A stretch of DNA of 64,000 bases from Ginglymostoma cirratum (lineage: Eukaryota): NCBI GenBank assembly GCA_024137785.1, contig JAHRHZ010000288.1:735468-799467 (forward strand), read 5' to 3'. The first letter of the stretch is position 1. Each line of letters begins with the position of its first letter. Positions 12,430-63,590 of this stretch are shown here, piece by piece. Under the pieces are notes generated by a model. The model was not told where the DNA came from. It did no database searches and was given only the letters and a program-made list of their open reading frames with translations. Both the position numbers and the translations under genes were made by a program.

Positions 12430-13850
12430 ACCATGAAAAATAGGAAGAGGAGTAGCCATTTGGCCTGTTAGCCTGCTCCATGACCCAATAGGATCATGGC
12501 TGATCCAACACTCCTCATGTCCACTTTCTTGCCCTTTCCCCTCACCCTCAATTGTCCGACTGATCAAGAATATACCTATCTCAGTCACTAATATACACAA
12601 AGATTCCACTCCATCAGCTTCCTGTGGCAAAGACCTCCAGAAACTCATGACCCTTTGAAAGAAGAATTTCCTCCTCATCTCAGTCTTAAACTGGCACCAC
12701 TTACTTCTGAAACTATGCCAAATAAAAATCGACAAAACTGTGAATGTTGTAAATCAGAAACCAAATTAGAAATTGCTGAAAAAGATCAGTTCTGGCAGCA
12801 TCTGTGGAGAGAAATCAGGGTTAATTTTTTGGGTCAAATGACCCTTCCTTGAGGAATTTTTGTTTCTGAAACTGTGCCCGCTGGTCCTAGATGCTCTTGT
12901 AAGGGAAACATCCTCTCAGCATTTACCCTTTCAAATCCCTTAAGAATCCTCTATGTTTCAATAAAATCACCTCTCATTCTTCCAAACTCCAGTGAGTAGA
13001 GTCCCAACCTGTTTAACCATTGCTCAAAAGAGAATCCCTTCATAGGCTCACCCTAGTGAATATTCTCTGAACAGTCTTCAATAAATAATATATTTCTTAA
13101 ATAAGGGAACCAAAGTTGCTGGCAGTACTCCAGGTGTGGTCTCACCATCAGCTTATACAGTTACATTAAGACTTCCCTGCTTTCATACTCCAATACTTGA
13201 AATAAGGGGCAAAGTTCCATGAGGCCACCTACTCGCTGTACCCATGTGCTAGTCTTCTGTGTTTCATGTACAAATACCCCCAAGTCCATTTGTGTTGCAT
13301 TTTTCTGCAGTTCTTCTCCCTTCCAAAATGGACAACTTTACACTTCCCCATATAACACTCCATTTGCCAATTTTTTGCTCACTTAGTTAAATTATCAATA
13401 TCTGTGCTGTAAACTTTGTATCCCACGTAAACTGATTGTTTATCTTGCAAGCTGCCATGGAGTCATAGAGCTATACAGCGCAGAAACAGACCCTTCGATC
13501 CAACTTGTCCACGCTAATCAGATATGGTAAACTGATCTAATCCCATTTGCTTGCATTTGATCCATATCCCTCTAGACTCTTCCTATTCGTGTACCTATCC
13601 AGTTGTCTTTCTACCTATTTTTGTTTCATCTGCAAATTTGGCTACAGTACATTCTCTTCCTTCCTCCAATTCATTAATATATATTGGTAAACAGTTGTGA
13701 CCCCAGCACTGATCCCTGTGGAACCCCATTAGCCATAGATTACCAATCTAAAAAAGAACACCCTCTCCCCACTTGCTGTTCCCTGTCCATTAGCCAATTA
13801 TTGTCCATGTCAATATATTACCTCCAACACCATGAGCTCTTATGACTTAA
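12430..13850 (-). mobile_element. Older CR1 fragment containing nested Penelope-derived half element (12722-12868) and CR1 3' end (13460-13610)
   Basis: ORF 12409-12735 (FKTEMRRKFFFQRVMSFWRSLP); GVPQGSVLG-like gaccccagcactgatccctgtggaacccc at ~13700. Confidence 0.8.
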
Positions 13851-14130
13851 ACTTTTGGTGATTCTTTTGTGATCCTTATCATAATAATGACTCAAATCTA
13901 GAATATGATGTTGGCAATAAATCTGATGTATGTGACTACTATGATGTTATAAAGTAGAAGAAGAGCCACATTGCAAGAATTAGGCAAATAATAAATTATA
14001 ATAAGTGGCCAATTGAATATTCGACTTTTGGAGACGAAAAGAAACAAAACAGTTCTTGAAAAGCATCAGAGCATGTAATATTAGTTGAGAAAGATAGATC
14101 ACTAAGAAATGATTTATTTTGATTTATAAG

Positions 14131-14310
14131 GGTTCCCTTATTTAAGAAATATATTATTTATTGAAGACGGTTCAGAGAATGTTCACTAGGATGAGTCTAT
14201 GAAGGGATTCTCTTTTGAGCAATGGTTAAACAGTTTGGGACTCTATTCACTGGAGTTTGGAAGGATGATAGGTGATTTTATTGAAACATAGAGAATTTTT
14301 AAGGGACTTG
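14131..14310 (+). repeat. 180-bp inverted duplicate of 12932-13111 (CR1-derived)
   Basis: Reverse-complement match along its whole length, including shared idiosyncratic deletions. Confidence 0.85.
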
Positions 14311-15142
14311 CAAGAATAGCTTCCAATGTGATCTATCCAATGGAATATTTAACAAACACTGAAAATTGTGACACTGAAGAAATAGAAATCAATGAATATA
14401 GATGTCTCTGGCACTGATGATGAAATATTCACTGTATTGACAATATTAGGGCAAAAAATGGACTTTAACAACTTTCTGTTTCCATCAAGTATGATTTTTA
14501 ATATCTGAGACGTTTCATGGACTAAAATGGTTTTCAAAGGACAATGCTGGCCTAAAATGATCACCTGCAAGAATTAAGGCAAGTTCAAAAAAGTCAATAT
14601 GCAATAAACAAAACAGTTTGAATTGAAAATACTGTTTTATCCAAAGTGATTGAAGCAAATCAACTCAGTCTGGCATTGAAAAACTTGTATTTCCCATATT
14701 AATTTACACTGGTATGAGAAGTTGCACATATTAGAATGGAAAGGGTTGCCTGCCACTATCCAGCTTGGAAAGACAATGGAGCCAGACTTGGCAATACACA
14801 AATAAACCATATTTCTGTTCCTGATGGCAGAGTAGAAGATAGAAAGAAATATGGACTGGGAACAGCAATTACTGACGTCTCTTTCTCCTTATCCCCCTAT
14901 TTCCTCATCACCGTCTTAAAACAGCATCCAGCAATAAAAGCAAATCGAAGAAACAAACATTCAATGAGATGTCAAAGATATCGATATATTTTGCTGTGAT
15001 GGAGGATACAAGTCAGCCATTAAACAAACAGCTGTGCTTTCAGGTTAAAAACTAAACTTCTAGGACTCTAAGGAGTTTTAAACCGTGTAGCCTTTATACT
15101 TTCCATCTTTCCATTTGTTTAAGGGATCTATACTGTGTGTGC

Positions 15143-17209
15143 TTGATATGTTTGTCCCTCGCAGGCAGGGAAGATGTGGTCAAGTGAGGAAGCCTTGGCT
15201 CTCAAGAGAGGTCGAATGACTAGTTAAGAGGAAGAAGGATGCTTATATAAGGTTCAGAAAACAAGCATCAGAAAAGGCTTTAGAGGGATACAAGTTAACC
15301 AGGAAGGAGCTGAAGAAAGGGCTTAGGAGAGCTATAACAGGGCATGAGAAAATCTTGGCAGATAGGATCAAGGAAAACTCCAAGGCTTTTTACACGTATG
15401 TGAGGAATAAGAGAATGACCGGAGAAAGGGTAGGGCTGATCAAGGATTGTAAAGGAAATTTGTACACAGAGCCTAAAGAGATAGGAGAGGTCCTTAATGA
15501 ATAGTTTTCTTCAGTATTCACAACTGAGAGGGGCCTAGTTGTAGAGGAGGACAGTGTGAAACAGGCTGGTAGGCTAGAGGAGGTCGATGTTAGTAAGGAA
15601 GATGTACTAGGAATTTTGAGGACCTTGAAGATAGATAAGTCCCCCAGGCCTGATGGGATTTATCCAAGGATTCTATGGGAAGCGAGGGAAGCGATCTCAG
15701 GGCCTTTAGTGATGATCTTTTCATCCTCACTGTCCACAGGCATAGTGCCGGAAGATTGGAGAGAGGCAAACGTCATTCCCTCGTTCAAAAAAGGGAATAG
15801 GGATAACCCTGGAAATTACAGGCCACTTAGTCTTACATCTGTGGTGGGCAAATTATTGGAAAGGACTCTGAGAAATAGGATTTATGATCACTTGGATAGG
15901 CACAGTTTCATTCGTGATAGTCAGCATGGATTTGTGAGGGGTAGATCGTGCCTCATAAACCTTATTGAATTCTTTGAAGAGGTGACCAAACACATGGTTG
16001 AAGGTAGAGCAGTGGATGTGGTATACATGGATTTAAGTAAGGCGTTTGATAATGTTCCCCATGGTTGGCTCATGCAGAAAGTAAGGAGGCATGGGATAGG
16101 GGGAAATGTGGCAGATTGGATTCAGAATTGGCTGACCCTTAGAAGAATTCGGGTGGTAGTGGACAGAAAATATTCAACATGGTGCTCAGTTACGAGTGGT
16201 GTACCACAAGGATCTAGTCTGGGTCCTCTTCTGTTTGTGATTTTTGTACATGATTTGGATGTAGGAATGGAAGGGTGGATTAGTAAGTACCCGGATGATA
16301 TGAAGGTGAGTCGAGTTGTGGATAGTGCGGAGGGCTGTTCTAGGTTACAAAGGGACATTGATAGGATGCAGAGCTGGGCTGAGAAGTAGCAAATGGAGTT
16401 TAACCTTGAAAAGCGTGAGGTGATTCATTTTGGAAGGACAAATTTGAAAGCAGAATACAGGGTTAACAGAAAGATCCTTGGCAGTGTGGAGGAGCAGAGG
16501 GATCTTGGGGTTCATGTCCACAGTTCCCTGAAAGCTGCCACCCAGGTGCATAGAGTTGTCAAGAAGGTGTTTAATGTGTTAGCTTTTATTAATAGAGGGA
16601 TTGAGTTCAAGAGCCGTGAAGTTATGCTCCAGCTATACCTGATACCTAAAACCCTGATTCGGCCACATCTGGAGTATTGTGTCCAGTTCTGGTCGCCTCA
16701 TTACAGGAAAGGTGTGGAAACATTGGAAAAGGTGCAGAGGAGATTTACCAGGATGTTGCCTGGAATGAAAGGAAGGTCTCATGAGGAAAGGTTGAGAGAG
16801 CCAGGGCTTTTCTCTTTAGAATGATGGAGGATGAGAGGTGACTTGATAGACGTGTACAAAATGATCAGAGGTATAGATAGAGTGCACAGCCAGAGACTTT
16901 TTCCTATGGTGGAGGTAGCTATTATGAGGGAGCATTGTTTTAAAGTGAGTGGAGGTAGATATAGAGGAGACGTCAGAGGTAGGTTCTTTACTCAGAGAGT
17001 GGTAGGGGTGTGGAATGCATTGCCGGAGAGGGTAGTGGAGTCGGCCTCATTAGGGGCATTTAAGCGGCAATTAGATAGGCATATGGATAATAGTATAAGG
17101 TAGGGGTGGAGGTTAGATAGACCTTAGGTTTAGGGTAAAAGCTTAGCACAACATCGTGGGCCGAAGGGCATGTACTGTGCTGTACTGTTCTATATTCTGT
17201 GTTCTATGT
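15143..17209 (+). mobile_element. 5'-truncated CR1 LINE with the whole RT domain, disabled
   Basis: ORFs 15556-16389, 16393-16824 and 16831-17103: KSPRPDGI, NYRPLSLTS, QHGF, DLSKAFD, GVPQGS.LGPLLF, YPDD; in-frame stops at 16387 and 16822; (ttcta/ttctg)n tail. Confidence 0.96.
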
Positions 17210-19504: not shown

Positions 19505-19677
19505 TTAATCTTCATCTCCTTCATCAATTTCAGCTCTCCCACGATAAGGTCAGAAATGAGGATGTTCACTGATGATTGCACAATGTTCAGCACCATTTAC
19601 ACACTCCTCAGATACTGAAGCAGTTTCTGTCTATATGCATTAAGACCTGGACAGTCTGTTGGCCCATACTGATAAGT
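19505..19677 (+). mobile_element. L2/CR1-group LINE RT fragment, left of the retroviral insertion
   Basis: atgttcactgatgattgcacaatg = MFTDDCTM (FADD-like); continues collinearly at 24310. Confidence 0.7.
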
Positions 19678-19684
19678 ATGTTTT

Positions 19685-21105
19685 CTATGCTGTACCCATG
19701 AGTGTATCTGCATATTTGAACCCCAGTACCAGAAGTCATCCCACCAATTAGGCACTTTGATTTCCTTGATACCCATTTGAATTTGCTCTGTCTGTGGAAC
19801 ATTTGCAAATTGTGTCCGGACATGCTGTGGTTTTTCAGATAGGAGTTTGATGCCAGTACCATATTGCTACCAATAACCTCGTATCTGAGTTCGTCACTGA
19901 CTTGACAAATATTTCATTCCCCCTGTGGATATCTGTGTGCTTGATTAGGCCTACCCTGTTTGGTATGTATTGCCTAATACAAAAGGTGATATTTATTTTC
20001 ATTCATTAATGGGATGAGAGTGTCATTGACCAGCCAGCATTTATTGGCCAGAGGGCAGTTAGGAGTCAGCCATGTTGCTGTGGGTCCGGAGTCACATGTA
20101 GGCCATACCAGGTAAGGATGGCAGTTTCCATCCTTAAGGGACATTAGTGAACCAGATGGATTTTTCCGGCAATTGGCAACAGATTTACAGTCATCATTAG
20201 ACTCTTAATTCCAGATATTTATTGAATTCAAATTCCACCATCTGCCATGGCGGGATTCAAACCTGGGTCCCCAGGACATTGTCTGGGTCTCTGGATTAAC
20301 AGTCCAGCAATAATACCACATGACCATCCCCTCTTTTACACATGAAAGTCCTGTACTGGTAGCGTTTTAAAGAAGTTGTGATGCAGTATTCTCCCTTCCC
20401 CCTAAATACTACCCATGTGATGTCTGTGTTCTGGCTCCAGATCTGGAAAGTGCAATTTTGAACAGTGTTTTTCTGAAAACCGCACATGAAGGCATGCTTA
20501 TTTGAATACATGGTGTAGGTGCGAGCAATTCCTTCCTTTGTCTGTTAACGTTTACCTAGAGTGGTACCTACAAGACATCTCTCTTTCTCAACAGCATACA
20601 GCAGGGTGCTAACATATTCTAACCATATTATTTCTTGGATAATGCTGATATTTTAAACCTCAAAGACTTTTAAACCATTTTTGATTTGGTGCTATGATCA
20701 GGATCCCCAGTACCATCCCAGTGACCTTTCTTGGGATCTCCATACAATTGTTGGTGAATTGCCATAATTGGCAATTTGAAATATTGGGACATTCCTTCCC
20801 ATGGAACCAATGCTCCATCTGCTCATCATTGATCCAAGACAGGATCTGTCTTTGCTTAGTCTGCTTGAGGTTCTCCCTTAACTGTTCAATCATCCACTGG
20901 TCATAAATGCTGCACAAGGTCCTATTTTGCTGCCTGCTGTCATCATCTATCTTTCCCTGGTTGATCTCTTTTATGTTCCTGGTGTGCTCTTCTGGAACCA
21001 TTACCAGATGCTGTTCTGCCTGATTTTTTTTAATCCCCCATTTATGCCGATTGACCAGGTGAATCCACTAGATTGCCAAAGTGACATAAAGTCAGCTGAA
21101 TTGTT
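19685..21105 (-). pseudogene. env-like glycoprotein remnant (interrupted by SINE at 19991-20331)
   Basis: Fragments NSADFMSL; TLCSIYDQWMIEQLRENLKQ...ILSWI; CGFQKNTVQNCTF...GKGEYCITTS..YQY; VPNWWDDFWYWGS (~19717-19755). Downstream of pol on the same strand. Family assignment is inference. Confidence 0.55.
19991..20331 (-). mobile_element. tRNA-derived SINE, near full length
   Basis: B-box GGTTTGAATCC; tail ccaataaatgctggc...catcccattaatgaatgaaa shared with LINE 3' ends at ~24990 and ~63540. Confidence 0.82.
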
Positions 21106-21129
21106 GCAAGGGTACACGCTTCTGGGCAA

Positions 21130-21770
21130 AAGTTGAATGAAACTTTGCTCGATCAGAATGGTTAGGAGGTTCAGGCCGATAAAATAAGCAAAATGTTGTA
21201 CTGCCCAGAACAAGGAATGAACACTTGACCCTGTTAAAGGAACTGTTAACCCTCCTCACTAACGTCTGGATCAGACCCACTGAAATGACAGAAGACCCAG
21301 CAGCATAGGCAATTCTCTCAGAGCAATAGAGTGTGATGTATGCTTCTCACACATAGAGAAACCCTCTACTGGTGAAAGAGTCTGGCAGGCATAGGCTACC
21401 AATCTGAGTTCATTGTGATGTACTTGGAGAAGTACAACTGCCAATGTGGCACCTGTGGCTGCAACCTCCAAGGCAAAGGGAAGTTCTACGTTGGGTATTT
21501 GCAGTGTGGGGGCTTGCACTAGGACTAGTTTTAATTCAGCTATAGCATCTGTGTGCAGTTCAGTCCATTCCTACTGGGTATCGCTTGAAAGGAGGTCAGA
21601 GAGTGGAGCAGTTTTAATGGTGAAACCATTGATGTGGTTCCGACAGTGGTGCATTGAGCCAGAAAGTGACACAACAAGCTCATTTCCCTGGGGAAGAGCA
21701 AACAGGTTATGACCTCGATGAGCTTCTCCTCTACCTCATGTTTCCCCTGTGCTCTCACTGTTCCCAAGTC
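21130..21770 (-). pseudogene. RT connection + gypsy-type RNase H remnant, split by a 129-bp inverted insert
   Basis: ORF 21271-21519 (QAPTLQIP..LPFALEVAA...LVAYACQTLSPVEGFSMCEKH) resumes in ORF 21001-21213 (FWAVQHFAYFIGLN). Confidence 0.85.
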
Positions 21771-21779
21771 TGAGTGCTA

Positions 21780-22390
21780 GGACTTCATGATCTACATCTT
21801 CTTTGGGTTAACTGTCCATCTATCACTACCTCGCACTCTGTGCAACCACAGTCATGTTTGTGACTGGTCATCACACTCTATTGCTCTGAGAAAATTGCCT
21901 ATGCTGCTGGGTCCTCTGTCATTTCAGTGGGTCTGATCCAAATGTTAGTGAGGAGGGTTAACAGTTCCTTTAACACGGTCAAGTGTTCATTCCTTGTCTC
22001 AGTCTGCGGAAGGAAATTGTCCACGTACTGTACCAAGCAGTCCAGTTGGGACTCCAGTTCTAGCCCTTCCACCAACCTCTAATGAAATATTGTTCAGAAT
22101 TGTGAAAACTGTGGAGCTTGCAGATCCCTGTGTATTGCTGGTCCTGAAACATGAAGGTGAATTTATATTGGCAGTGTTGGTTGAAGGGTGTGGACCAAAA
22201 TCCATTACTAATGTCCAGCACTGTGAAATAGTTCACCTGTGGGGTTTGATTTATCAGGCTAGTTGCTGTTGTTGGTGCTGTGATCAGAGTGGTTTTATTT
22301 AGTTCCCAGTAATTGATGGTGAGCCATCAAGAGCTGTCTGTTTTCATAAGTGGCCATTGGTGAGATAACTGTAGATACAACAGGTGTATG
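21780..22390 (-). pseudogene. Reverse transcriptase core remnant
   Basis: LDISNGFWS (22192-22218), QYKFTF, FHNS, CLVQYVDN (YVDN 22016-22027), EHLTVLKELL, VNPKK; frameshifted. Confidence 0.88.
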
Positions 22391-22401
22391 TCTCCTTATT
22401 T

Positions 22402-22605
22402 GGCGGTCGGTTTAGCTCAGTTGGCTGGATGATTGGTTTGTGAAGCAGTGTAATGCTAACGGCATGGGCTTAAAGGCCACACTGGCTGATGTTATCATTA
22501 AGGATTCTCCTTCTCAACCTTTCTTTTCGCCTGAGGTATGGTGGTTCTCAGATTAAATCACTGCCAGTTGTCTCTCTCTCAAGACAGAGCAGCCCTATTG
22601 TCTAA
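22402..22605 (+). mobile_element. tRNA-derived SINE of a second family, inserted between pro and RT
   Basis: Head ggtttagctcagttggctgga (A-box); cgcctgaggtatggtggttctcagattaaatcac central motif. Confidence 0.65.
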
Positions 22606-22689
22606 TCCACAATTCCCCCACAGTACAATTTCTCTGTACGTATGTGCCTGTCGCAGTCTGCACTGGGGCCTCATTGAGTTTGGGCTTTT

Positions 22690-22930
22690 GCCAAATAGTT
22701 GGCTGGGTCAAAAATTGAATTACACTGCCTCATAAGGGCTAAGTCTAAGATGTGCTCGGCATCGAACGGGGATTAACCAACACTGCTCTGTAAGACCCGA
22801 TCTCCCAGTTTAAATTCTATAGGGTCTCCTGTAGGTGCCCATTGAATCCATTCAGAAGAACTTTTTTCCGGGTGCACCATGTATTATCAAAATCTGAGGA
22901 TATGTTAAGTGTCATTCTGGACCCTCTGCA
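22690..22930 (-). pseudogene. Aspartic protease remnant
   Basis: LLNGFNGH flap-like (22835-22855), PIEFKLG, EHILDLALMRQ..IFDPAN (ILG.D-like); catalytic D[ST]G not found. Confidence 0.5.
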
Positions 22931-22999
22931 TCCTATAAAAACTTAACAGGGCAGACTTCCACCTCACTGTGTGCCAGGGGCCTTTCCAGGGGCCTGTTC

Positions 23000-24250
23000 G
23001 GTGCTGCACAACCATTGAGGAGAAGTGTGGCTCTGTGTACACTCACAGAGAGTGTAACCCATGGAGGGTGTGGGTACAAGGAGTTAGAGGGTGAGATTTC
23101 CTCCAGTAAGCTTGGCTGTGTGATCTTCCCCACCAGATTAACTGTTGCTTGTCTCTACAGTCCTTCCAGCAGCATTGGCTGGGGTCTTGAGCCTGGCTCC
23201 TGTGGTGACACTGACTGCCTGGGTACCCTCCAGCTCCTTGCGTGTGCGACCACAGTTGTAACATTTTCTTGACCTGCTGCTGCTGATCCGTATCTATCAC
23301 TGCAACATAGACTAATGGAGGCAGATGGCTCCAATAATAACACCCCTTGTTTCATTTGCCTACATTATTTCTCCGCATGGAACTGGGGTTTGGTTTTATA
23401 AGAGGCATATTTTTCCCTTACCTGGTTTGGGGTGCCCCAACTCATGAATCTCTTTGTGCCAAGGCCAGACCATCACCACTATCACCCATTGTTCTGTGTG
23501 GATGTTGTCTGTGTTTTCTTCACTGCTTCGATGGTACACTAGACAAGCTGTGTCCACAGGCACCTGGCTAATGCAGTTGGGTTCTTTCCCGTTTGCTGCC
23601 TACTCTTATTTAATCCATCTATGGGATCTCCCCTGTTGTATGCTACAACGTCCAGGATTGTTGTTTTCATGGCCTGCAGCTCCCTTCCTCCCACATTCAG
23701 AGGATTGGGACTTGGGCACATTAATATTTATTTTACCTCCACGACATTTTTTTGAGCCTATGGAGAACTTTTATTAGTGGGTGCTGTCAAAATACATACA
23801 GGGGCCAGCTGTGGGCTCAAATGCAGGGATTTTTTTTGCTATCTCTGTCAATTGCACCACCGTAAACAGGGTTGTATAAGTAATTGGATTCTGGCTGTCT
23901 GATAGGTTATGGTTAATGGGTTCATTCGGGAAAGGGAAGATCCTAGGGGTGCTGAAGGATCTCCTCTCTTCAGAAAGGAAGGAGAGAGTCCCCAATCTTC
24001 ACTGCTGTCAATGTGTCTACAGATTGTCATTTGCTCCTAGTATGTCCCATAATCAATGTCCCCATCTGATTCTATTGTCTCAAGTGCACAAATCATTCCC
24101 TTTTGTGTGGAAAGTTAGGACTTTCATTCTCCAATCTCACACTGGTGTTTTGAATTGTTAACAGTGTGGGCTGTGTTTTCTTTGTGTATCTGGTGCAGGC
24201 ATCTCAGAGCAACCTGGAGGTTTTTACATTTCTTGGTTGGTTCATCCAAA
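23000..24250 (-). pseudogene. gag remnant with a broken CCHC zinc knuckle
   Basis: RKCYNCGRT at 23243-23269, with HARS in the adjacent frame; ORF 23774-23995 is gag-like; lies upstream of pro/RT. Confidence 0.6.
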
Positions 24251-24309
24251 GCTTTTTTGGGCTGTGTCTACATCACTGACTGTGCACTGTGCCTCCATTG
24301 TTTGACCAC

Positions 24310-25035
24310 AAGTGACAAGTAATCACACAAGTGCCAGGCAATGACCATCTCAAACAAAAAAGAATCAAACCATCACCCCTTGCCATTGCGAGCACTGGCT
24401 TCCCATTAGCAACAGATAGCAACTGAACCTGGCATATCAGTATTGTGGCTACAAGAATGCGTCAAAGATGAGGAATTCTATAGTAGTGACTCACGTCCTG
24501 ACACCCAATGCCTGATCACCATGTAGAAGGCACAGTTGGGAATGAGATGGAATACTCTCCATTACCTAGGTAAATGCAGGTCCAGTAGTACTCAACAAGT
24601 TTGACACCATCAAAGCAGTAAATTGACTGGATTCCATCCAGCACTTTCAATATTCACTTCACTTACCACTGATGCATAGTAGTGTCAGTGTCCACCATTC
24701 ACAAGATACATTGCAGTAACTTATCAAGGCTACTTCAACAGCATCTTCCAAGCCCACAACCACTGCCATTTGGAAGGACAGGGCAGCAGGTGGATGGGAA
24801 CACTGCTATTTGCAAGATTCCCTCCAAGTCATACATCATTCTGGTTTGGAACTATATTGCCATGACTGTCGCTAGGTCAATATCCCGGAGCTCCCTAACA
24901 GCACTGTGGGTGTGCCTATATCCTAAGGAATAAAGCAGTTGAAGAAGGCAGCTCACCTTCTCCAGAGCAATTAGGGATATGTAATAAACACTGGCCTAGC
25001 CAACAATACCTACATCCAGTCAATGAAAAAAACAA
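24310..25035 (+). mobile_element. L2/CR1-group LINE 3' part
   Basis: caagtgccaggcaatgacc...aagatacattgcagtaac...ccttccaagcccac-like body; homologous to 58790-60330 and 63270-63590. Confidence 0.8.
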
Positions 25036-25529
25036 AAGCTCTTTGGGGAAGTTACATGTGATAAGTAGAAAAATAAGTTTCAAGAGAAGGTGAAGAGTTT
25101 ACAAATGGAGATAGACAAGTTAATGAAGTTTAATGTGGGCAAATGTAAAAATTTTCACCTTTGCAGAAAGAATCAAAAAGCAATATAATATTGAAATGAA
25201 GAGAGATTTCAAAATTCTGTAGCACAAAGGGACCTGGAACTGCTGATACATGAATCACAAAAAGATAGCAGGCAAATATAGCAAGTGGTTAGGAAGGCAA
25301 ATGGAATGCTGATATTTAGTGCAAGAGGAATTTAATGTAAAAGTAGGCAAGTTTTATTAAGCTGTACGAGACCTTGCTGAGACCATATTGAGAGCATTGT
25401 GTAGATTTTTAGTCACTTTACTTGAAAAAGTATACAACTATAAAAGAAGCAATCAGTGATTGTTCATTTACCTCTTTCCTGGGATGATGAGCTTACCAAA
25501 TCAATAATGGTTGATCAGACTGGGCCTTT

Positions 25530-42390: not shown

Positions 42391-42625
42391 TAGCAGTCTC
42401 AGATTTCTCCCACAATTTCAGTGTGCTTGGGATATAAGTACAAATATATTAACTTTTGAATTAGGAGCAGATGTGGGCCATTCAGCCCCTTGAACCTGCT
42501 CCACCATTCAACAAGATCATAGCTGTGTTGGAGATAAAAGGTACTGCAGATGCTGGAGAATCCGAGATAACAAGCATGGGGCTGGATGAACACAGCAGGT
42601 CAAGCAGCGTCATAGGAGCAGGAAA

Positions 42626-42661
42626 ACTTGACGTTTCGGGCCTAAACCCTTCATCAGAAAT
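42626..42661 (-). ncRNA. Minimal type I hammerhead ribozyme motif
   Basis: AUUU-CUGAUGA-A-GGGU-UUAG-GCCC-GAAAC-GUC-AAGU. Confidence 0.75.
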
Positions 42662-43059
42662 GGGGGAGGGGAAGAGGGTTCTGAAATAAATAGGGAGAGA
42701 GGGGAAGGTGGATAGAGGATGGATAGAGGAGAGGATACGTGGAGAGGAGGCAGACAAGTCGAAGAGGCGGGGATGGAGCCAGTAAAGGTGAGTGTAGGTA
42801 GGGGGTAGGGAGGAGATAGTTCAGTCCAGGGAGGACGGACAGGTCAAGGGGGCGGGATGATGTTAGTAGATAGTAGATAGGAGATAGGACTGGAATACAC
42901 CTCCTCCCACCCACCCTCCTGCAAAAATGCCATCCCCTATTCCCAATTCCTTCGCCTCCGCCGCATCTGCTCCCAGGATGAGACATTCCAATCCCGCACA
43001 TCTCAAATGTCCTCATTCTTCAAGGACCGCAACATCCCCCCCCACAGTGGTCGAGAACC

Positions 43060-43803
43060 GTGTCTCTCGACCGTGTCTCCCGCATTTCCCGGAACACATC
43101 CCTCACGCCCCGTCCCCGCAACAATAACCAAAAAAGAATCCCCCTCGTCCTCACATGCCACCCCACCAACCTCCAGATCCAACGCATCATCCTCCGACAC
43201 TTCCGCCATCTGCAGTCAGACCCCACCACCAAAGACATATTTCCCTCCCCACCCTTATCTGCCTTCCGGAGGGACCACTCCCTCCGCGACCCCCTTGTCC
43301 GCTCCACACTCCCCTCCAGCCCCACCACACCCGGCACTTTTCCTTGTAACCGCAGGAAGTGCTACACCTGCCCCCACACCTCCTCCCTCACCCCAATCCC
43401 AGGCCCCAAGAAGACTTTCCACATCAGGCAGAGGTTCACCTGCACATCTGCCAATGTGGTATACTGCATCCGCTGTACCCGTTGTGGCTTCCTCTACATC
43501 AGGGAAACCAAGCAGAGGCTTGGGGACCACTTTGCAGAACACCTGCGCTCAGTTCGCAACAAACAACTGCACCTCCCAGTCGCGAACCATTTCAACTCCC
43601 CCTCCCATTCCTCAGATCACATGTCCATCCTTGGCCTCCTGCAATGCCACAGTGATGCCACCCGAAGGCTGCAGGAACAGAAAATCATATTCAGCCTGGG
43701 ATCCCTGCAGCCCAATGGCATCAATGTGGATTTCACAAGCTTCAAAATCTCCCCTTCCCCAACCGCGTCCCAAAACCAGCCCAGCTCATCTCCACCTCCC
43801 TAA
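43060..43803 (+). pseudogene. Penelope-like ORF C-terminus: Cys-rich linker + GIY-YIG endonuclease
   Basis: PCNRRKCYTC; FTCTSANVVYCIRCTRCGFLYIRETKQRLGDHFAEH; VANHFN; LQPNGIN. YIG has become YIR and the catalytic Arg position is His. Confidence 0.92.
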
Positions 43804-44054
43804 CCGGTTTTTCCTCTCACCTCAAGCCCCACCCCCATCTCCGATCTACTAACATCATCCCGCCCCCTTGACCTGTCCGTCCTCCCTGGACTGAACTATC
43901 TCCTCCCTACCCCCCTACCTACACTCACCTTTACTGGCTCCATCCCCGCCTCTTCGACTTGTCTGCCTCCTGTCCACCTATCCTCTCCTCTATCCATCCT
44001 CTATCCACCTCCCCCTCTCTCCCTATTTATTTCAGAACCCTCTTCCCCTCCCCC

Positions 44055-44090
44055 ATTTCTGATGAAGGGTTTCGGCCCGAAACGTCAAGT
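44055..44090 (+). ncRNA. Minimal type I hammerhead ribozyme motif
   Basis: AUUU-CUGAUGA-A-GGGU-UUCG-GCCC-GAAAC-GUC-AAGU; predicted cleavage after C44086. Confidence 0.78.
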
Positions 44091-44715
44091 TTTCCTGCTC
44101 CTATGATGCTGCTTGACCTGCTGTGTTCATCCAGCCCCATGCTTGTTATCATAGCTGTGTTGTTTGTTTCGTCAAATTTGCATTCTCATCTATTCCAATA
44201 ACTTTCACCCACTTGTGTAACAGGTATCTGTATACCTCTGCCTTAAAAGTATTCAAGGACTTCACTTCCATCACCTTTTCAGGAAGAAAATTCCAAAGAC
44301 GTCCAATCCTCTGAAAGGAAAAGATATTCACCTAATCTCTGTTTTAAATGGGCAATTATTGATTTTTAAACAGCGACCCCCCCCCCCCAGTTTTATATTC
44401 TTTCAGAAAGGAAACATCCACTACACTTTCAAGATAGCTCAGGATCTTATATGTTTTAATCAAGTCACTGCGTCCCTCTCTAAACTCCAGCAAATATAAG
44501 CCTAATCTGTCTAACCTTTTCTCATAAGACACCTTCTCATACTAGGCATTAGTCTGCTAAACCTTCTTGGAACTGTCTCCAATGCATTTATAGCAAGGTA
44601 AAGCAGGAGTGGGTCATATGTCACGAGCTCCCCCATCCAATTTGACCATCATTGGATCTTCACCACAAAACAAACTAACCAACTTTTGCTCCATGTTCAT
44701 TGAAGACATTCAAAA

Positions 44716-50907: not shown

Positions 50908-52100
50908 GGGGGAGATATTATCACTAGACTCTTAAACCAGAAACTCTGCCAAATTTCTGGGGACCTGGGTTTGAATCCCACCACGATAGTTTGAACACAA
51001 AAAAAAATGTATAACTAAGAATCAGCTAATGACTGCAAAGCCATCACTGACTGTTGGGAAAAACCCATCTGACACACTGATGCCTGTCCAGACATTCTCA
51101 CCTGGTTTGGCCTACATGTGATTCCAGATCTATAGCAGCGTAGTTGACTCTCAACTGCCCTCTGAAGTGTCTTACCAAGCTACTCAATTGTTTCAATTGC
51201 TACAACGTCTCAACAAAGAAATAAAACTGGATGGATCACCTGGTATTGACCTAGGCACCGGAAAAGACAACAGCAGAAACAGCCGTCGACCCTGCAAAGT
51301 CATCCTTATTAACAGCTGGTGGTTTGTGCCAAAATGGAATAGCTGTCCCACAGATCAGTCAAGCAAAAGCTTGACATATTCATACAATTGGAATCATACC
51401 CCAGAAACAAAAAACACTATCGCCAGACATATCCTGTCCCACAGGCAGCACAGTGGTATACAGTTGGGAGGAAGTTTTCCTGGGAGACTTCAACATTGAC
51501 TCTGACCCCATGAAATCTCATGGCTCCAGGTTAAACATTGACAAGGAAACTTCCTGCAGATAATCATGTACTGTTTTCCCTCGGCTGATGAATAAGTATT
51601 CTTCCATGTTGAACAACATTTGGAGAAAGCATTGAGAAAAGAAAGGACGCAAAATGTACTCTGGGTAGGGGAATTGAATGTCCACCACCACCAATTGGGC
51701 CAATAGCAGCACTATTGATTGAGATGTTTGGACCCTAAAGGACATATCTGATAAACTAGGTCTGCAACATTTGGTGGTGAGGGAACTAACAAAGGGGAAA
51801 AACATACTTGACCTCATCTTTATCAATCTGCCAACTGCAGATGCATCTGTCCATGACAGTGTCAGTAAGAGTGACCATCGCACAATCCTTGAAGTCGCAC
51901 CTACACATTGACAATGCCCTCCATCGCGTTGTATGGCACTACCAATGTGCTAAATAGGACAAAACTTCAAACAGATCTAGCAACTCAACTATTGGCAACC
52001 ATGAGGCACTATGGGCCATCAACAGCAGCAGAATTGTACTCTAACACAATCTACCCGCCTATCCCCCTCTCAACCATTTCCATCAGGCCGGGGATCAACC
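50908..52100 (+). mobile_element. 5' part of an L2/CR1-group LINE: tRNA-derived head followed by decayed APE endonuclease
   Basis: B-box GGTTTGAATCC at ~50968; later GELNVHH (GDFN-like), NILDLIFINL and SDHRTIL motifs at ~51670-51890. Confidence 0.8.
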
Positions 52101-58300: not shown

Positions 58301-58352
58301 TTACTGCTCCTGAAGCATTCTGACGGAAAATTTGTTCAGAGACTTTATATAT

Positions 58353-58680
58353 ATTCATTCATGGGATGTGGGCATCTCTAGCTAAGTCAGTATTTATTGC
58401 ACATCCCTAATTGCTTAGAGGGTAATTAAGAGTCAACTACATTGTTGTGGGACTGGAGTCACATGAAGGTCAGTTCCCTTTCCTAAACAGTATTAATAAA
58501 CCAAGTGCATTTTTCTCCAACAATTGTTTCATGGTCATCTTTCGAGTCTTAATTCTATATCTTTATTGAATTCAAATTCCACCATTTACTGTGGCAGGAT
58601 TTGAACCCAGAACCCCAGGACATTACTCGGGTCTCTGGGTTAATAGTCTAGCAAAGGTAACACTAGGCCACTGCCTCCCC
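58353..58680 (-). mobile_element. tRNA-derived SINE, full length
   Basis: A-box TGGCCTAGTG, B-box GGTTCAAATCC; tail cccacatcccatgaatgaat. Confidence 0.85.
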
Positions 58681-58789: not shown

Positions 58790-60330
58790 CTCAATGGAAG
58801 GTACCGATCTGGTGAAGTGAAATTGCGGGAATACCCATATGCCCAACAATGGTGGCCGCATGGAATAAACAGCTATAAGTAATTCTACAAGTAATGGATC
58901 AGATCTAAGCTCTTTAGTGCTGCTATATCAAGTTGTAAAAGGTGGTACATAAGGAAACTGCTAACAGGAGGAAACACTTCACAAAAATCTCCATCCTCAA
59001 TGGTGGAAGAGCTCAGCACTTCAGAGCTAGAGACAAGACTGAAACATTTGCAACAGCTTTCAGCCAAAAGTGTATCCTAGATCATTCATTTTGGCCTCCA
59101 TCTGAAGTTGTAAGCGTCATGGATTCCAGACTTCAAACGATTCAATTCATCCCACATGATATCAAAGAACAGCTGCAGCCTTTGGATACTGTAAATGCTA
59201 TTGGGTCTGACAACATTCCTGGAATAACACTGAAGATGTGCACTCCTAAATCAGCTGCATCCCAGCCAAGTTGTTCCAGTACAGGTACAACACTGATATC
59301 TACCCAACAATGTAGAAAATTGCCCAGGTATGTCCTGTCCACAAAAACAGAACAAATCCAACCAGGCCGATTTCTACCCTATCGGTTTATTTTCAATCAT
59401 CAGAAAAGTGACAGAAGGTATCATTGATAGTGCTATTGAGTGGCATTTCCAAAGAAATAACTTGCTCACTGGCGATCAATTTGGGTCTGTCTGTGTCACT
59501 CAACATCTGAACTCTATAGCCTTCGTCCAAAAATGGACAGATGAGCTGAATTCCAGATAGGAGGTGAAAGTGATTCCACTTGATTTCAAGGCAACATTTG
59601 ACTGAGTGTAGCGTCGAAGGGCCCAAGCAAAACTGGAGGCAATTTGAATCAGGGGAAATCTCTGCTGGTTGGAGTTATATTTGACACAGATGTTGATGGT
59701 AGTGATTCTTGGAATTCAATCTTCTGAGTCCATAGATGTGGAGCAGCCCTATAATTATTGTGGCTACAAAACAGACCAGGAATTCAACAATCTACTATCT
59801 CCCAAGTGGCTGACAACAATCTACAAGGCACAAGTCAGGAATGCGATGGATATCCTTCACTTGCCTGGATGGGTACAACTCCACCAACACTCAAGTAGCT
59901 TGACACCATCCAAGAAAAATCAGACTGCTTGATTGGCACCACATCCACCATCTTCAATCATCACAACCTCCACCACCAATGCACGGAGGCAGCAGTATGT
60001 ACCATCTTCAAATGCACTGCAGTTACTCAACTAGCCTCCTTCGATAGCTCCATTCAAATTCATGACCTCTGCCATCAAGAAAGGTAAGGTCAGCAGATGC
60101 ATAGAGATACCGCTATTTGCAAGTTACCCTCCAAGCTATACCCCATCCTGAACTGGAACCATATCACTATTTCTTAACTGCCACTGGCTTAAAATTCCCT
60201 TCCTAACAGCACTGAAGAACTTCAGTTATTGAAGAAGGCAATTCACCACCACATTCTCCTGGGAAATTAGGGGTAGACAATGAATACTGACTTAGCTGGT
60301 GGTGTCCACATCATGTGGATGACAAAAAAA
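58790..60330 (+). mobile_element. L2/CR1-group LINE, decayed RT and 3' end
   Basis: AIGSDNIP..LK, FYPIGLFSII, LLTGDQFG, LDFKATFD, TIYKAQVR. Confidence 0.85.
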
Positions 60331-60611
60331 CCCTCTGTATTATGATGTTACCCTCAACTTTTAACTTTTACTTCCAATTCCTATGTCAAAATTGCTCACA
60401 CATCTAGTAATTTGTTTGGCTTCATCATCTCCACATTGAATTTCATCTTCCACAATAGTGCTCACTCAATCAATCTGTCTGTCTCCATTTTTAATTTCGA
60501 ACTCACAACTGCACAATTTACTTTGTTTTTCAACTTAGTGTCACCTTCAAAATTAGACAAACATTAAATCCACGCAAGTTATTCATATATCAGTGATTAG
60601 GTTTAGGATTA

Positions 60612-61690: not shown

Positions 61691-63269
61691 TTATGCTTTC
61701 ATTTTCTCAGATTGTGCAGCTCCTTATCAAATACTGTCCAAAAATCCATATAGAAGATATAATGACACCACCACCTTCATGCCAGCTCCTTCAAAACAAA
61801 AGTTGGTGCTGATTAATCAGACGTAGTTAACCCCTCATTAATCCTGCTGACTCTCTGATCTGATGTTTCAAACTGCTCACTTGACTAAAAGCTTTTTCTT
61901 TAGTTTCGTGAGAAAATCTAATGGTGAAGTTACAGGGCAGAATGACCTGAAGCAATCAAGCGTCAGGTTTACTGTTTAAAGCACAAGGTCTGCTAAGTCT
62001 TTTTTAAAGGAAAACCAACTTGTAGTATCAGGGAATGGCAAGCAGCTTGATACAAATTTTTTAAAAAACCCCAACATAAATTTTCCATTATCGTAGAATC
62101 CTACGCATTGACTAGAACCTGTCTCTGTCTCTGTTTGAAACACATTAGTTTTCTTGTTTGTGCTACTGTTTTTATATACTTTACTATTTGATGTACCTCT
62201 GTAAGATAATTTCTCAGTTGTCCTCTCTCGAAGTTGCGCAGTCCAAGTTTCTCCAGTCCTTCCTCGTAACTTTCTTCTTTGTTTCGACTCATGCTCTTCT
62301 CTGTACTACATGCAAGGCACTGAATGCTTCTTCTCCGTCCCTGTGAGCAGAATTGGAGAGTTCTCTAGGCGACTTGGCCAAGCTAATGTACCTGACTCTA
62401 GTTCTCTAGTCATTGGCTCATTTAGCATTCATTGTTTTGTTGATTACTGCTGCAGAATGCTTAATAGTTTTAGATGTCATTTAGTTTCAACAGATGCAAT
62501 TGCTTATGCTTTATAGTATGCCATCCTTTGTTTCTTGTGCCTTGCATTTCTTACATTTATCCATACCACACTTCTATTGAAACATATTATTTTTAACTAT
62601 CCAATACCATCGGCCAATCTAATCGTCTAGATATGACCTTTAACTTACTCACCTCTGACGCTGCCTTCTCAGATTCCACTGGCCAAATAGGTCAAGGAGC
62701 ATTGCAACAGTGACCACTTTACTTTGAGGTCCTGGTTACCCTGTGTCAATTACTCCAGTCACTGGCAACTGCCAGTTTAAAAACTGTCAGTATATTAAAA
62801 ATAGCATTGTGTTTAGGTTTGCTTACAACGTGAAACATTGTGTCCTTCTGTGTTCTTCTTTACATTTTTAATATGGGTTAAGAGCATTAGACCTCAGAAG
62901 TAAAGCAGAAGTGGTCCTGATTGGGCCTGCAACAGGGCAATTCAGATTGCTTTTCACTTACAATTTTGTTCCTGCCAACCAGTTAATGATGAAAATTAGC
63001 TAAAAAATAGTGCTTTGCGTCAGTATCATTGCATAAAATATCCAGCATAGAAACACCATTCAGCTCAATCTGTCTTTGCCTACTCCTAATCCTGATCCCT
63101 AATCCTGATCCTAACCCTAATCCTCAACCACTACTCTTCACTTAACCCTGGGCAATGTTCATAGGCAGTGTCACGTACATATGCAATATAATCACTAAGA
63201 GGTTGATATTTATACTGTGGTTACTTTAGATTCTTTTCCTTTCATGGATGGTGTCCAGGTTAGATCTAC

Positions 63270-63590
63270 TTCATGATCTACTTCCAAACCCACAACCACT
63301 TCCATCTAGAAGGACAAGGGCAGCAGATATATGGGAACACCATCACCTCCAAGTTCCCCTCCAAGTCACTTACCATCCTGACTTGGAAATATATCGCTGT
63401 TCCCTCTCTGTCGCTGGGTCAAAATCCTGGAATTCCCTCCCTAATAGCATTGTGGGTCAACCCACAGCAGGAGGACTGCAGCGGTTCAAAAAAGCAGCTC
63501 ACCACCACCTTCTCAAGGGCAACAAGGGATGGGCAAGAAAAATGCTGGCCAGCCTGCGATGCCCACATCCCACAAATGAATAAAACAAAA
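63270..63590 (+). mobile_element. L2/CR1-group LINE 3' end, well preserved
   Basis: KSWNSLPNSIV...GLQRFKKAAHHHLL; tail gatgcccacatcccacaaatgaataaa. Confidence 0.85.

Follow-up and report, generated by a model that had tools for sequence, protein, structure and literature searches.

Class III endogenous retroviruses (ERVs) have already been published from sharks and, with 2,843 loci in six genomes, they are the commonest ERVs of cartilaginous fish (PMC11089739). The described systems nearest to the locus reported here are the snakehead retrovirus (SnRV) and the clade Huo class III ERVs (Xu et al. 2018, PMC6001957), the SnRV-related lineage I of the elephant shark CmiERVs (Han 2015, PMC4422223) and a set of frog and coelacanth ERV Pols annotated as 'NYNRIN-like'. 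For lokiretroviruses the reported count among six chondrichthyan genomes is zero (PMC7947760). The described bearers of an F-type Env are lokiretroviruses, foamy viruses and invertebrate errantiviruses, and the foamy Env has the class Ib core common to the F proteins of paramyxoviruses and pneumoviruses (Fernandez et al. 2024, PMC11468914).

The window analysed here is a stretch of 64,000 nucleotides from Ginglymostoma cirratum. It contains what is probably a dead and rearranged member of a multi-copy class III ERV family in the SnRV-related ('Huo') group, with an env that is likely F-type (class Ib). A sequence-only reading had described a lokiretrovirus-like relic running from 19678 to 24309, and the motifs it quoted are real and all lie on the minus strand within that interval. 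The stretch is not a single continuous element: repeats have been inserted at two places, one piece is displaced, another is duplicated in inverted orientation and a large segment is deleted. The broken provirus retains gag, protease, RT, tether and part of the env TM subunit on the minus strand; neither an LTR nor the membrane anchor remains in this copy, and queries with the family LTRs matched neither of its ends.

The gag remnant (23200-24296, minus strand) has colinear DNA matches of 63-69% to loci L035, L066 and L070 that reach 24285-24296. It holds the first half of a zinc knuckle (CYNCG, first base 23263), as had been read; the His-Cys half is lost in the window, and the full CX2CX4HX4C lies at the matching place and strand in at least 7 of the 49 genomic loci scanned. 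The gag-side ORFs of the copies have only weak coiled-coil Pfam matches, and SnRV Gag also has a coiled coil. In the protease remnant (22601-22990, minus strand; tblastn of residues 1-94 of the intact family protein P0221 to 22858-22601, E 3e-8) the active-site motif is degraded, and the motif FLWD[TS]G is intact in six other loci. At the expected place of the protease-RT linker lies an inserted short repeat (22420-22589), whose 68% match in L045 lies at a separate place. It is likely a tRNA-derived SINE, its tRNA-like start having been read by eye. Residues 134-176 of P0221 have no match in the window.

The RT palm is frameshifted (21948-22397, minus strand) and corresponds to P0221 residues 177-318 at 55-63% identity. 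LDISNGFWS, QYKFTF and FHNS share the frame 22326-22060, on which Pfam RVT_1 matches with an E of 3.5e-4, below its curated cut-off, and YVDN lies in another frame near 22030. A displaced piece of the protease-RT linker (21815-21944, minus strand; P0221 residues 91-133) is located inside RT, between residues 318 and 322, and matches the normal upstream place in L045, L066 and L071. It is followed by the RT thumb and tether, a degenerate first RNase H (21126-21812, minus strand; P0221 residues 322-512). The 'gypsy-type RNase H' of the sequence-only reading was correct as to the motif, since VAYA...WAVQHF is present in 21570-21126 (RT_RNaseH_2, E 7e-13), and wrong as to the domain, which is a retroviral tether because fuller copies carry a second RNase H after it; the tether tree described below bears on the same region. 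Inserted in the tether is a 129-bp inverted duplicate of 21869-21997 (21210-21338, plus strand; inverted repeat I8, 5 mismatches in 129), which is younger than the displaced-piece event because it spans that junction.

At the deletion junction (21064-21126) the second RNase H, integrase, SU, cleavage site and fusion peptide are absent, and the missing segment of about 3.6-3.7 kb measures 3.67 kb against L037 and 3.64 kb against L066. Beyond it lies the Cys-rich region that had been noticed earlier, which is a remnant of the env TM-subunit ectodomain (20336-21064, minus strand) comprising the end of the helical part and then the Cys-rich part. It matches P0237, the env-like ORF of another copy, from residue 58 to residue 290 at 46-49% identity (E 6e-50). 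A dispersed repeat inserted in env (19993-20335) matches window positions 58344-58677 and 50916-51164 as well as unrelated places in other loci, and env picks up in register on either side of it. The C-terminal part of env (19690-19994, minus strand; colinear with L037, L043, L066 and L071) runs to the Trp-rich membrane-proximal motif and has lost the anchor, the hydropathy maximum after this motif being 0.80 in the window against 2.1-2.4 in three of five other distinct copies. The 3' end of the element is truncated by a flanking repeat (19508-19675), by eye a LINE RT-like fragment, whose matches in L044 and L069 lie beyond the ERV parts of those loci; dispersed repeats on the 5' side (24325-25055) match window positions 59739-60351 and 63266-63590. 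Since its germline integration the copy has thus been stripped of the LTRs, RNase H, integrase, SU and anchor, has gained two repeats and has been locally rearranged. Judging from its stops, frameshifts and deletions, it presumably encodes nothing functional.

The family is large, with at least 150 genome matches to RT and at least 150 to env (first env ORF), and the fuller copies that the sequence-only reading proposed to look for were found; they carry an integrase and a second RNase H, with a glycoprotein gene downstream. The order RT-(tether)-RNase H-integrase-env is seen in L021, L038, L044, L046, L061, L065 and L066, and Pfam RNase_H, rve and Integrase_H2C2 match natural ORFs of the copies. 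Other copies have LTR pairs and a tRNA-Asn primer site (PBS), although the LTR pairs of L071 and L073 are possibly not both ends of one provirus. The canonical features of Retroviridae are thus represented by an RT within the retroviral clade (100/99) and, from the LTR pairs and PBS of fuller copies, by the layout LTR-PBS-gag-pol-env-LTR. The parent element had a Gag with one CCHC knuckle and, from the fuller copies, a Pol with protease, RT, tether, second RNase H and integrase. In its Env, an N-terminal part of 300 residues or more precedes a basic cleavage site, and the long subunit that follows carries a small-residue segment, long helices, ten columns of conserved Cys, a Trp-rich motif and a membrane anchor. 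Another basic site, upstream of the true cleavage site, was rejected as lying in the wrong frame. Reverse transcription was likely primed by tRNA-Asn beside the 5' LTR, and cell entry may have used furin priming and coiled-coil refolding, as in paramyxovirus F and foamy Env.

The polymerase groups on the SnRV side of the ordinary retroviruses and not with lokiretroviruses, which is the placement we favour from the sequence comparisons. The clade of canonical retroviruses that holds the family was supported at 99 (starred) in an 84-row RT tree, at 99 (starred) in a quick mixture-model tree of 55 rows and at 100/99 in a 38-row tree; both quick mixture-model and careful LG+G4 trees were used, on sets without alpha-, beta-, delta- or lentivirus rows. 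In the 38-row tree lokiretroviruses were separate (100/98), the family itself had 100/99, and the family together with the frog and coelacanth ERV Pols had 95/88. SnRV was sister at 89/93 in this tree and at 89 (SH-aLRT) in the 55-row tree, a position that is unstarred and that is absent from the 84-row tree. Loki rows were labelled by their match to RT texts in the paper's supplement, and four of the seven by host names. Class I rows formed a separate RT clade (100/100), so the earlier judgement that this is no gamma or epsilon ERV holds. The window RT is 60% identical to P0221, 41-42% to P0002, P0003 and P0004, 37% to SnRV, 26-28% to five Loki rows and 21-24% to six gypsy rows. The tether tree placed the family with canonical retroviruses (97/96) and lokiretroviruses apart (100/99). 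A scan with P0221 gave one distant match.

From sequence resemblance, the family env is likely of the paramyxovirus/foamy-virus fusion-protein type, its fold being unproven. The top ESM Atlas matches of P0237 were clusters bearing Baculo_F at 0.93, 0.92 and 0.91 (that family on 28-44% of members) and Fusion_gly at 0.82, with a recognition value of 1395, below the level where high scores are strong evidence; the SnRV TM returned the same cluster sets at 0.86-0.88. A profile of the non-coiled-coil part of env gave z 5.9 on the SnRV TM, the best of 17 targets (0 of 200 shuffles), z 4.2 on a six-sequence foamy TM profile (0 of 200 shuffles) and z of at least 3.2 on five of six single foamy TMs. 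On three gamma-type envs, SnRV gag and pol pieces and foamy SU, z was at most 1.3. In a first test with the coiled coil kept, the SnRV gag control had z 2.8. Several Cys of the family env are in register with the foamy TM. Because the viral contigs searched contained no Loki genome, the Loki Env was compared by eye only, and its text has the same motif order as the family env. A six-frame CX6CC scan gave 80 chance matches and was uninformative. We found no paper calling an SnRV-type Env F-like.

The main competing account of env accepts the pol placement and takes the resemblance to be a coiled coil plus a Cys-rich beta region, common to many fusogens, in an Env that is not F-type. It would explain why the control SnRV SU segment reached z 3.3 and why hhalign was weak (SnRV Env, P 0.0075, probability 5%; foamy Env, P 0.11, probability 0.5%). 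An hmmsearch with the A1 env profile missed both SnRV Env and foamy Env, Pfam found no Fusion_gly, Baculo_F or Foamy_virus_ENV match on P0237, and the TLV_coat and Ebola-like HR models matched other ERVs of the genome and not P0237. Two AlphaFold2 models of single natural frames, from alignments of 67 and 133 copy fragments, had a mean pLDDT of 53.8 and 60.4, with the helices and C-terminal sheet folded and the Cys-rich core unfolded, and none of four fold searches with them (Foldseek on PDB and BFVD; a wide VIA search) returned a meaningful match. For the first model a shark paramyxovirus F ranked third (E 0.011); it was not counted and is absent from the 50 rows listed for the second. No longer homologue of P0237 was found in a set of 5.8 billion, and no homologue in PDB by sequence or profile or in metagenome contigs. 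Against this account, the signal survives removal of the coiled coil, the alignment is colinear over about 270 residues with the SnRV and simian foamy TMs, and searches with the family env and with the SnRV TM arrive separately at the same F-type clusters. We therefore consider it unlikely, and the claim of an env resembling fusion glycoproteins of negative-strand RNA viruses is likely right in kind.

As to the polymerase, the family and its frog and coelacanth relatives might form a separate early lineage nearer to Loki than to SnRV, with a Loki-like integrase and an F-type Env. The approximately unbiased (AU) test did not reject the wider clade with Loki (p 0.056), and the family integrase scores 131-151 bits to Loki against 50-60 to SnRV, the tether also scoring higher to Loki. 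The integrase tree, on a set without CGIN1, gave no clear order of branching along its backbone. Loki is nevertheless parted from the starred canonical clade holding the family in each of the three RT trees and in the tether tree, and the higher Loki scores may be a matter of slow evolution, since other class III rows reach them too; this alternative is improbable. The lineage first proposed, a true lokiretrovirus and the first from a cartilaginous fish, is more improbable still. It would account for the same integrase scores and for the dual RNase H and likely F-type Env, which are Loki features (PMC7947760), but a dual RNase H is not Loki-diagnostic because it is common to all retroviruses. 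Grouping the family with Loki was rejected (AU p 0.00077), the family integrase falls outside the 100/100 Loki integrase clade, the RT signature is LPQGFHNSP and QYVDD against PFGY.NSPAEF and (I/V)YVDD in Loki, and the N-terminal part of Env has at least 300 residues against about 100 in Loki texts. Least credible are a foamy-like ERV and a gypsy element that captured an env. In their favour, foamy RTs head the PDB sequence matches listed for the intact relative P0001, a listing without SnRV; grouping the family with foamy viruses was not rejected (p 0.089); and the tether matches gypsy-type Pfam models. Foamy rows form their own starred RT clade, which holds the family in no tree, and the spuma-like LDISNGFW occurs letter for letter in SnRV. 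The family has a Gag zinc knuckle and a tRNA-Asn PBS, neither of which is known from foamy viruses. Grouping the family with gypsy was rejected (p 0.00087), and fuller copies have the second RNase H, in agreement with the earlier exclusion of an ordinary gypsy element.

For an SnRV-related class III ERV with a likely F-type env, the interest lies in the pol-env pairing; the locus itself is only a dead fossil. If the shark family is F-type, a wider range of retroviruses has that entry protein, and if a canonical non-foamy lineage including the exogenous fish virus SnRV has it too, an F-like env, which foamy Env also has at its core (PMC11468914), is no Loki marker, contrary to the use first made of it. 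The origin of retroviral Env would then be testable on a known virus, SnRV. It is quite possible, though we stop short of calling it probable, that SnRV and the shark family retain an ancestral retroviral F-type fusogen common to Loki and foamy viruses, so that the last common ancestor of retroviruses was F-type and gamma-type Env repeatedly replaced it. An ancestral F-type Env is scenario 3 of the Loki paper (PMC7947760). A screen that depends on finding a gamma-type env homolog would overlook so large a family, and on motifs alone it would be miscalled Loki.

Compared with the known systems, the family is like SnRV in its RT motifs, tree position, tether plus RNase H and single Gag knuckle, and the family env is by its profile score of the SnRV type, its alignment extending over the SnRV TM subunit, which also shares its language-model neighbours. 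SnRV differs in an RT identity of only 37% (window) to 48% (P0221), in a distant integrase and in a primer site other than that visible in L118. Lineage I of CmiERV has LDISNGFW and LPQGFHNSP in its RT (supplement sequence, by eye) and a primer site different from the family's. Its env has, by eye, an LQNR..LD segment and CX6CC and is therefore gamma-type, whereas the family has a long Cys-rich TM subunit; on the ancestral reading, the replacement by gamma-type would have occurred even inside the same pol clade. The foamy TM gives a weak but colinear alignment with the family env, and the family Pol lies outside the foamy clade. Lokiretroviruses (Wang and Han 2021, PMC7947760) are alike in gag-pol-env, dual RNase H, an RXKR-type cleavage site and, by score, a similar integrase, and their Env likely belongs to the same F-type superfamily; they differ in forming a separate starred clade in RT, tether and integrase, in RT signature and in an Env with a short N-terminal subunit and a strongly hydrophobic fusion peptide. 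Some lokiretroviruses carry an smc-like gene before gag. The nearest named relatives across RT, tether, RNase H and integrase are the 'NYNRIN-like' Pols of frogs and coelacanth (P0002, P0003, P0006, P0008 and P0010), of which P0002, P0003 and P0008 share 54-58% RT identity with P0221.

Six-frame translation placed every motif quoted in the sequence-only reading on the minus strand of the window (G000:C288:735468-799467), and Pfam matches were obtained for 2 of 20 window ORFs tested, RVT_1 (E 3.5e-4) and RT_RNaseH_2 (E 7e-13). With an intact natural Pol relative, P0221 (taken from the cluster of a second such relative, P0001), the protease, RT and tether, a degenerate first RNase H, were mapped to 22858-21127. 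The window copy is heavily damaged. The protease-RT linker has given way to a short repeat, part of the linker is displaced into the RT, and a 129-bp piece across the new junction recurs as an inverted duplicate with 5 mismatches. A further 3.6-3.7 kb is absent at 21126-21064, env is interrupted by a repeat at 20335-19993, and both ends of the element are truncated by other repeats; family LTR queries matched neither end. Elsewhere in the window we observed an inverted repeat at 42566-44150 (I1, I19; 240-nt arms 98% complementary, inner arm pairs and a GC-rich skewed core), another at 12928-14314 (I2; 184-nt arms 93% complementary, spacing 1,019 nt), and the 3' part of a LINE ORF2 with few stops at 15220-17103, which we take from its motifs to be CR1-like.

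The genome searched (4.36 Gb, 289 contigs) contained at least 150 matches to the window RT piece (150 of 150 scored; 534 candidates), partly including other ERV lineages, at least 150 to the window env piece (150 of 150 scored; 353 candidates), and at least 141, from 129 scored (678 candidates), to P0237, an env ORF of another copy. Sixty stretches of 10 kb each were examined. An env match lay within range at 6 of 29 family loci selected by RT, and an integrase was present between RT and env in all seven loci picked as RT/env pairs; fuller copies, which the sequence-only reading had proposed to look for, exist, and 7 loci keep the order RT-RNase H-integrase-env. Three RNase H motif patterns were found at 7, 4 and 11 of 49 loci (the last including a few chance matches) and QY[VI]DD at 8 of 49. 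Eight candidate LTR pairs had K2P distances of 0.14-0.40, with 0.30 over 732 nt for L043, a locus of the subfamily nearest the window copy. The primer site 3' of the 5' LTR was clear in two loci (L031, L032) and degraded in two (L043, L070), and its complement was the tRNA-Asn(GTT) 3' end in all four loci checked out of 8 genomic matches.

Other ERVs were also encountered. Loci L048-L053 and L057 represent a second class III lineage, with an RT sister to reference protein P0014 (L048, L049) and a gamma-type env in L049-L052 (Pfam Ebola-like HR1-HR2 matches). Its LTR-like repeat pairs (L048, L052, L053, L057) are 92-96% identical, so this lineage is much younger than the family studied here. 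Long ORFs and a TLV_coat env mark the epsilon-like ERV L056, and L054 and L055 look like it in layout. A Mustelus asterias gene model named lysophosphatidylcholine symporter (P0029) carries a short RT stretch that is 91% identical to P0001 and covers 22% of the query; it may be a fragment of an ERV that was mis-joined or exonised.

For placement of the family, reference rows were gathered by sequence searches. P0046, encoded by the viral contig L118, is identical to the RT text labelled SnRV (snakehead retrovirus) in the supplement of the lokiretrovirus (Loki) paper; the labels of seven Loki rows likewise come from matches to this supplement, and four of the seven have host names. Feline foamy virus is represented by P0108 and WEHV-1 by P0125; ERV-L/S, gamma and gypsy labels were assigned by motif, by eye; the tree rows were without Odin, alpha, beta, delta and lentivirus. 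Three RT trees of 267 columns were built with 84, 55 and 38 rows, selected from 204 stretches of reference sequence together with 50 rows from the genome. In all three, Loki formed its own clade and the family fell inside the canonical retroviruses. The careful RT tree supported the family at 100/99, its grouping with frog and coelacanth ERV Pols at 95/88, and SnRV as sister at 89/93. The lokiretrovirus membership that the sequence-only reading had proposed did not hold (AU test of family with Loki, p 0.00077), and the nesting within gypsy that it had named as the opposing outcome was not seen either (p 0.00087). AU tests gave p 0.056 for the wider clade with Loki, and 0.089 both for the family with foamy viruses and for the family with SnRV alone. 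The tether tree agreed with the RT placement, with bootstrap not fully settled, and in the integrase tree, whose backbone is open, the family (100/99) and Loki (100/100) each formed a clade of their own. Scores of the family integrase (L030:4281-4967, L046:4142-5077) against Loki integrases were about 2.5 times those against SnRV integrase. The closest named relatives of the family integrase carry the annotation 'NYNRIN-like', and the family pol clade may be relevant to where the mammalian NYNRIN/CGIN1 gene came from (CGIN1 lay outside the comparison set).

P0237, a natural 306-residue ORF in L061, starts at a basic cleavage site and spans the part of env kept in the window. At least 300 further in-frame residues common to copies lie upstream; downstream is a Trp-rich motif, and three of five distinct copies besides the window's have a hydrophobic anchor after it, which the window lacks. 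In the TM part, Cys predominates at ten columns. In the ESM Atlas, P0237 matched clusters bearing Baculo_F (0.91-0.93) and paramyxovirus F (0.82), the recognition value being low; SnRV TM reached the same cluster sets at 0.86-0.88. The part of env outside the coiled coil was made into a score profile and compared with 17 targets (200 shuffles each), giving z 5.9 for SnRV TM, 4.2 for a foamy TM profile and 3.2-4.9 for five of six single foamy TMs (feline foamy, 0.8), versus 0.2-1.2 for three gamma-type envs and -0.5 to 1.3 for five other controls. One SnRV SU segment, also a control, scored z 3.3; SnRV Env (L118:6131-9532) has four basic cleavage-like sites. Other results speak against an F-type env: P0237 matched no F family in Pfam, hhalign to SnRV Env and foamy Env was weak, hmmsearch with the env profile matched neither, and in two AlphaFold models the env core was unfolded and fold searches were empty. 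Taken together, the family env is probably F-type, and the way the element works is likely that of a simple class III retrovirus whose fusogen is probably F-type.

In the literature covered (Repbase and most subscription journals lay outside it), we found no description of an SnRV-type Env as F-like, and the family is undescribed there, although supplements of bioRxiv 2021.11.23.469661 may list it. PMC7947760 defines Loki, sets out four scenarios for the origin of Env and records Loki in 0 of 6 chondrichthyan genomes, PMC9040795 covers Odin, PMC6001957 covers clade Huo, and PMC11089739 counts 2,843 clade III loci across 6 chondrichthyan genomes (see also PMC13524379, PMC12583693, PMC12440569, PMC13709493 and PMC8922424). 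PMC11468914 reports that foamy Env has the F core in common and covers class Ia/Ib; bioRxiv 2021.11.23.469661 reports gamma-type envs paired with SnRV-related Pols. CmiERV lineage I is likewise SnRV-related and was detected through a required Env homolog, according to PMC4422223, and its env, judged by eye, differs in being gamma-type.
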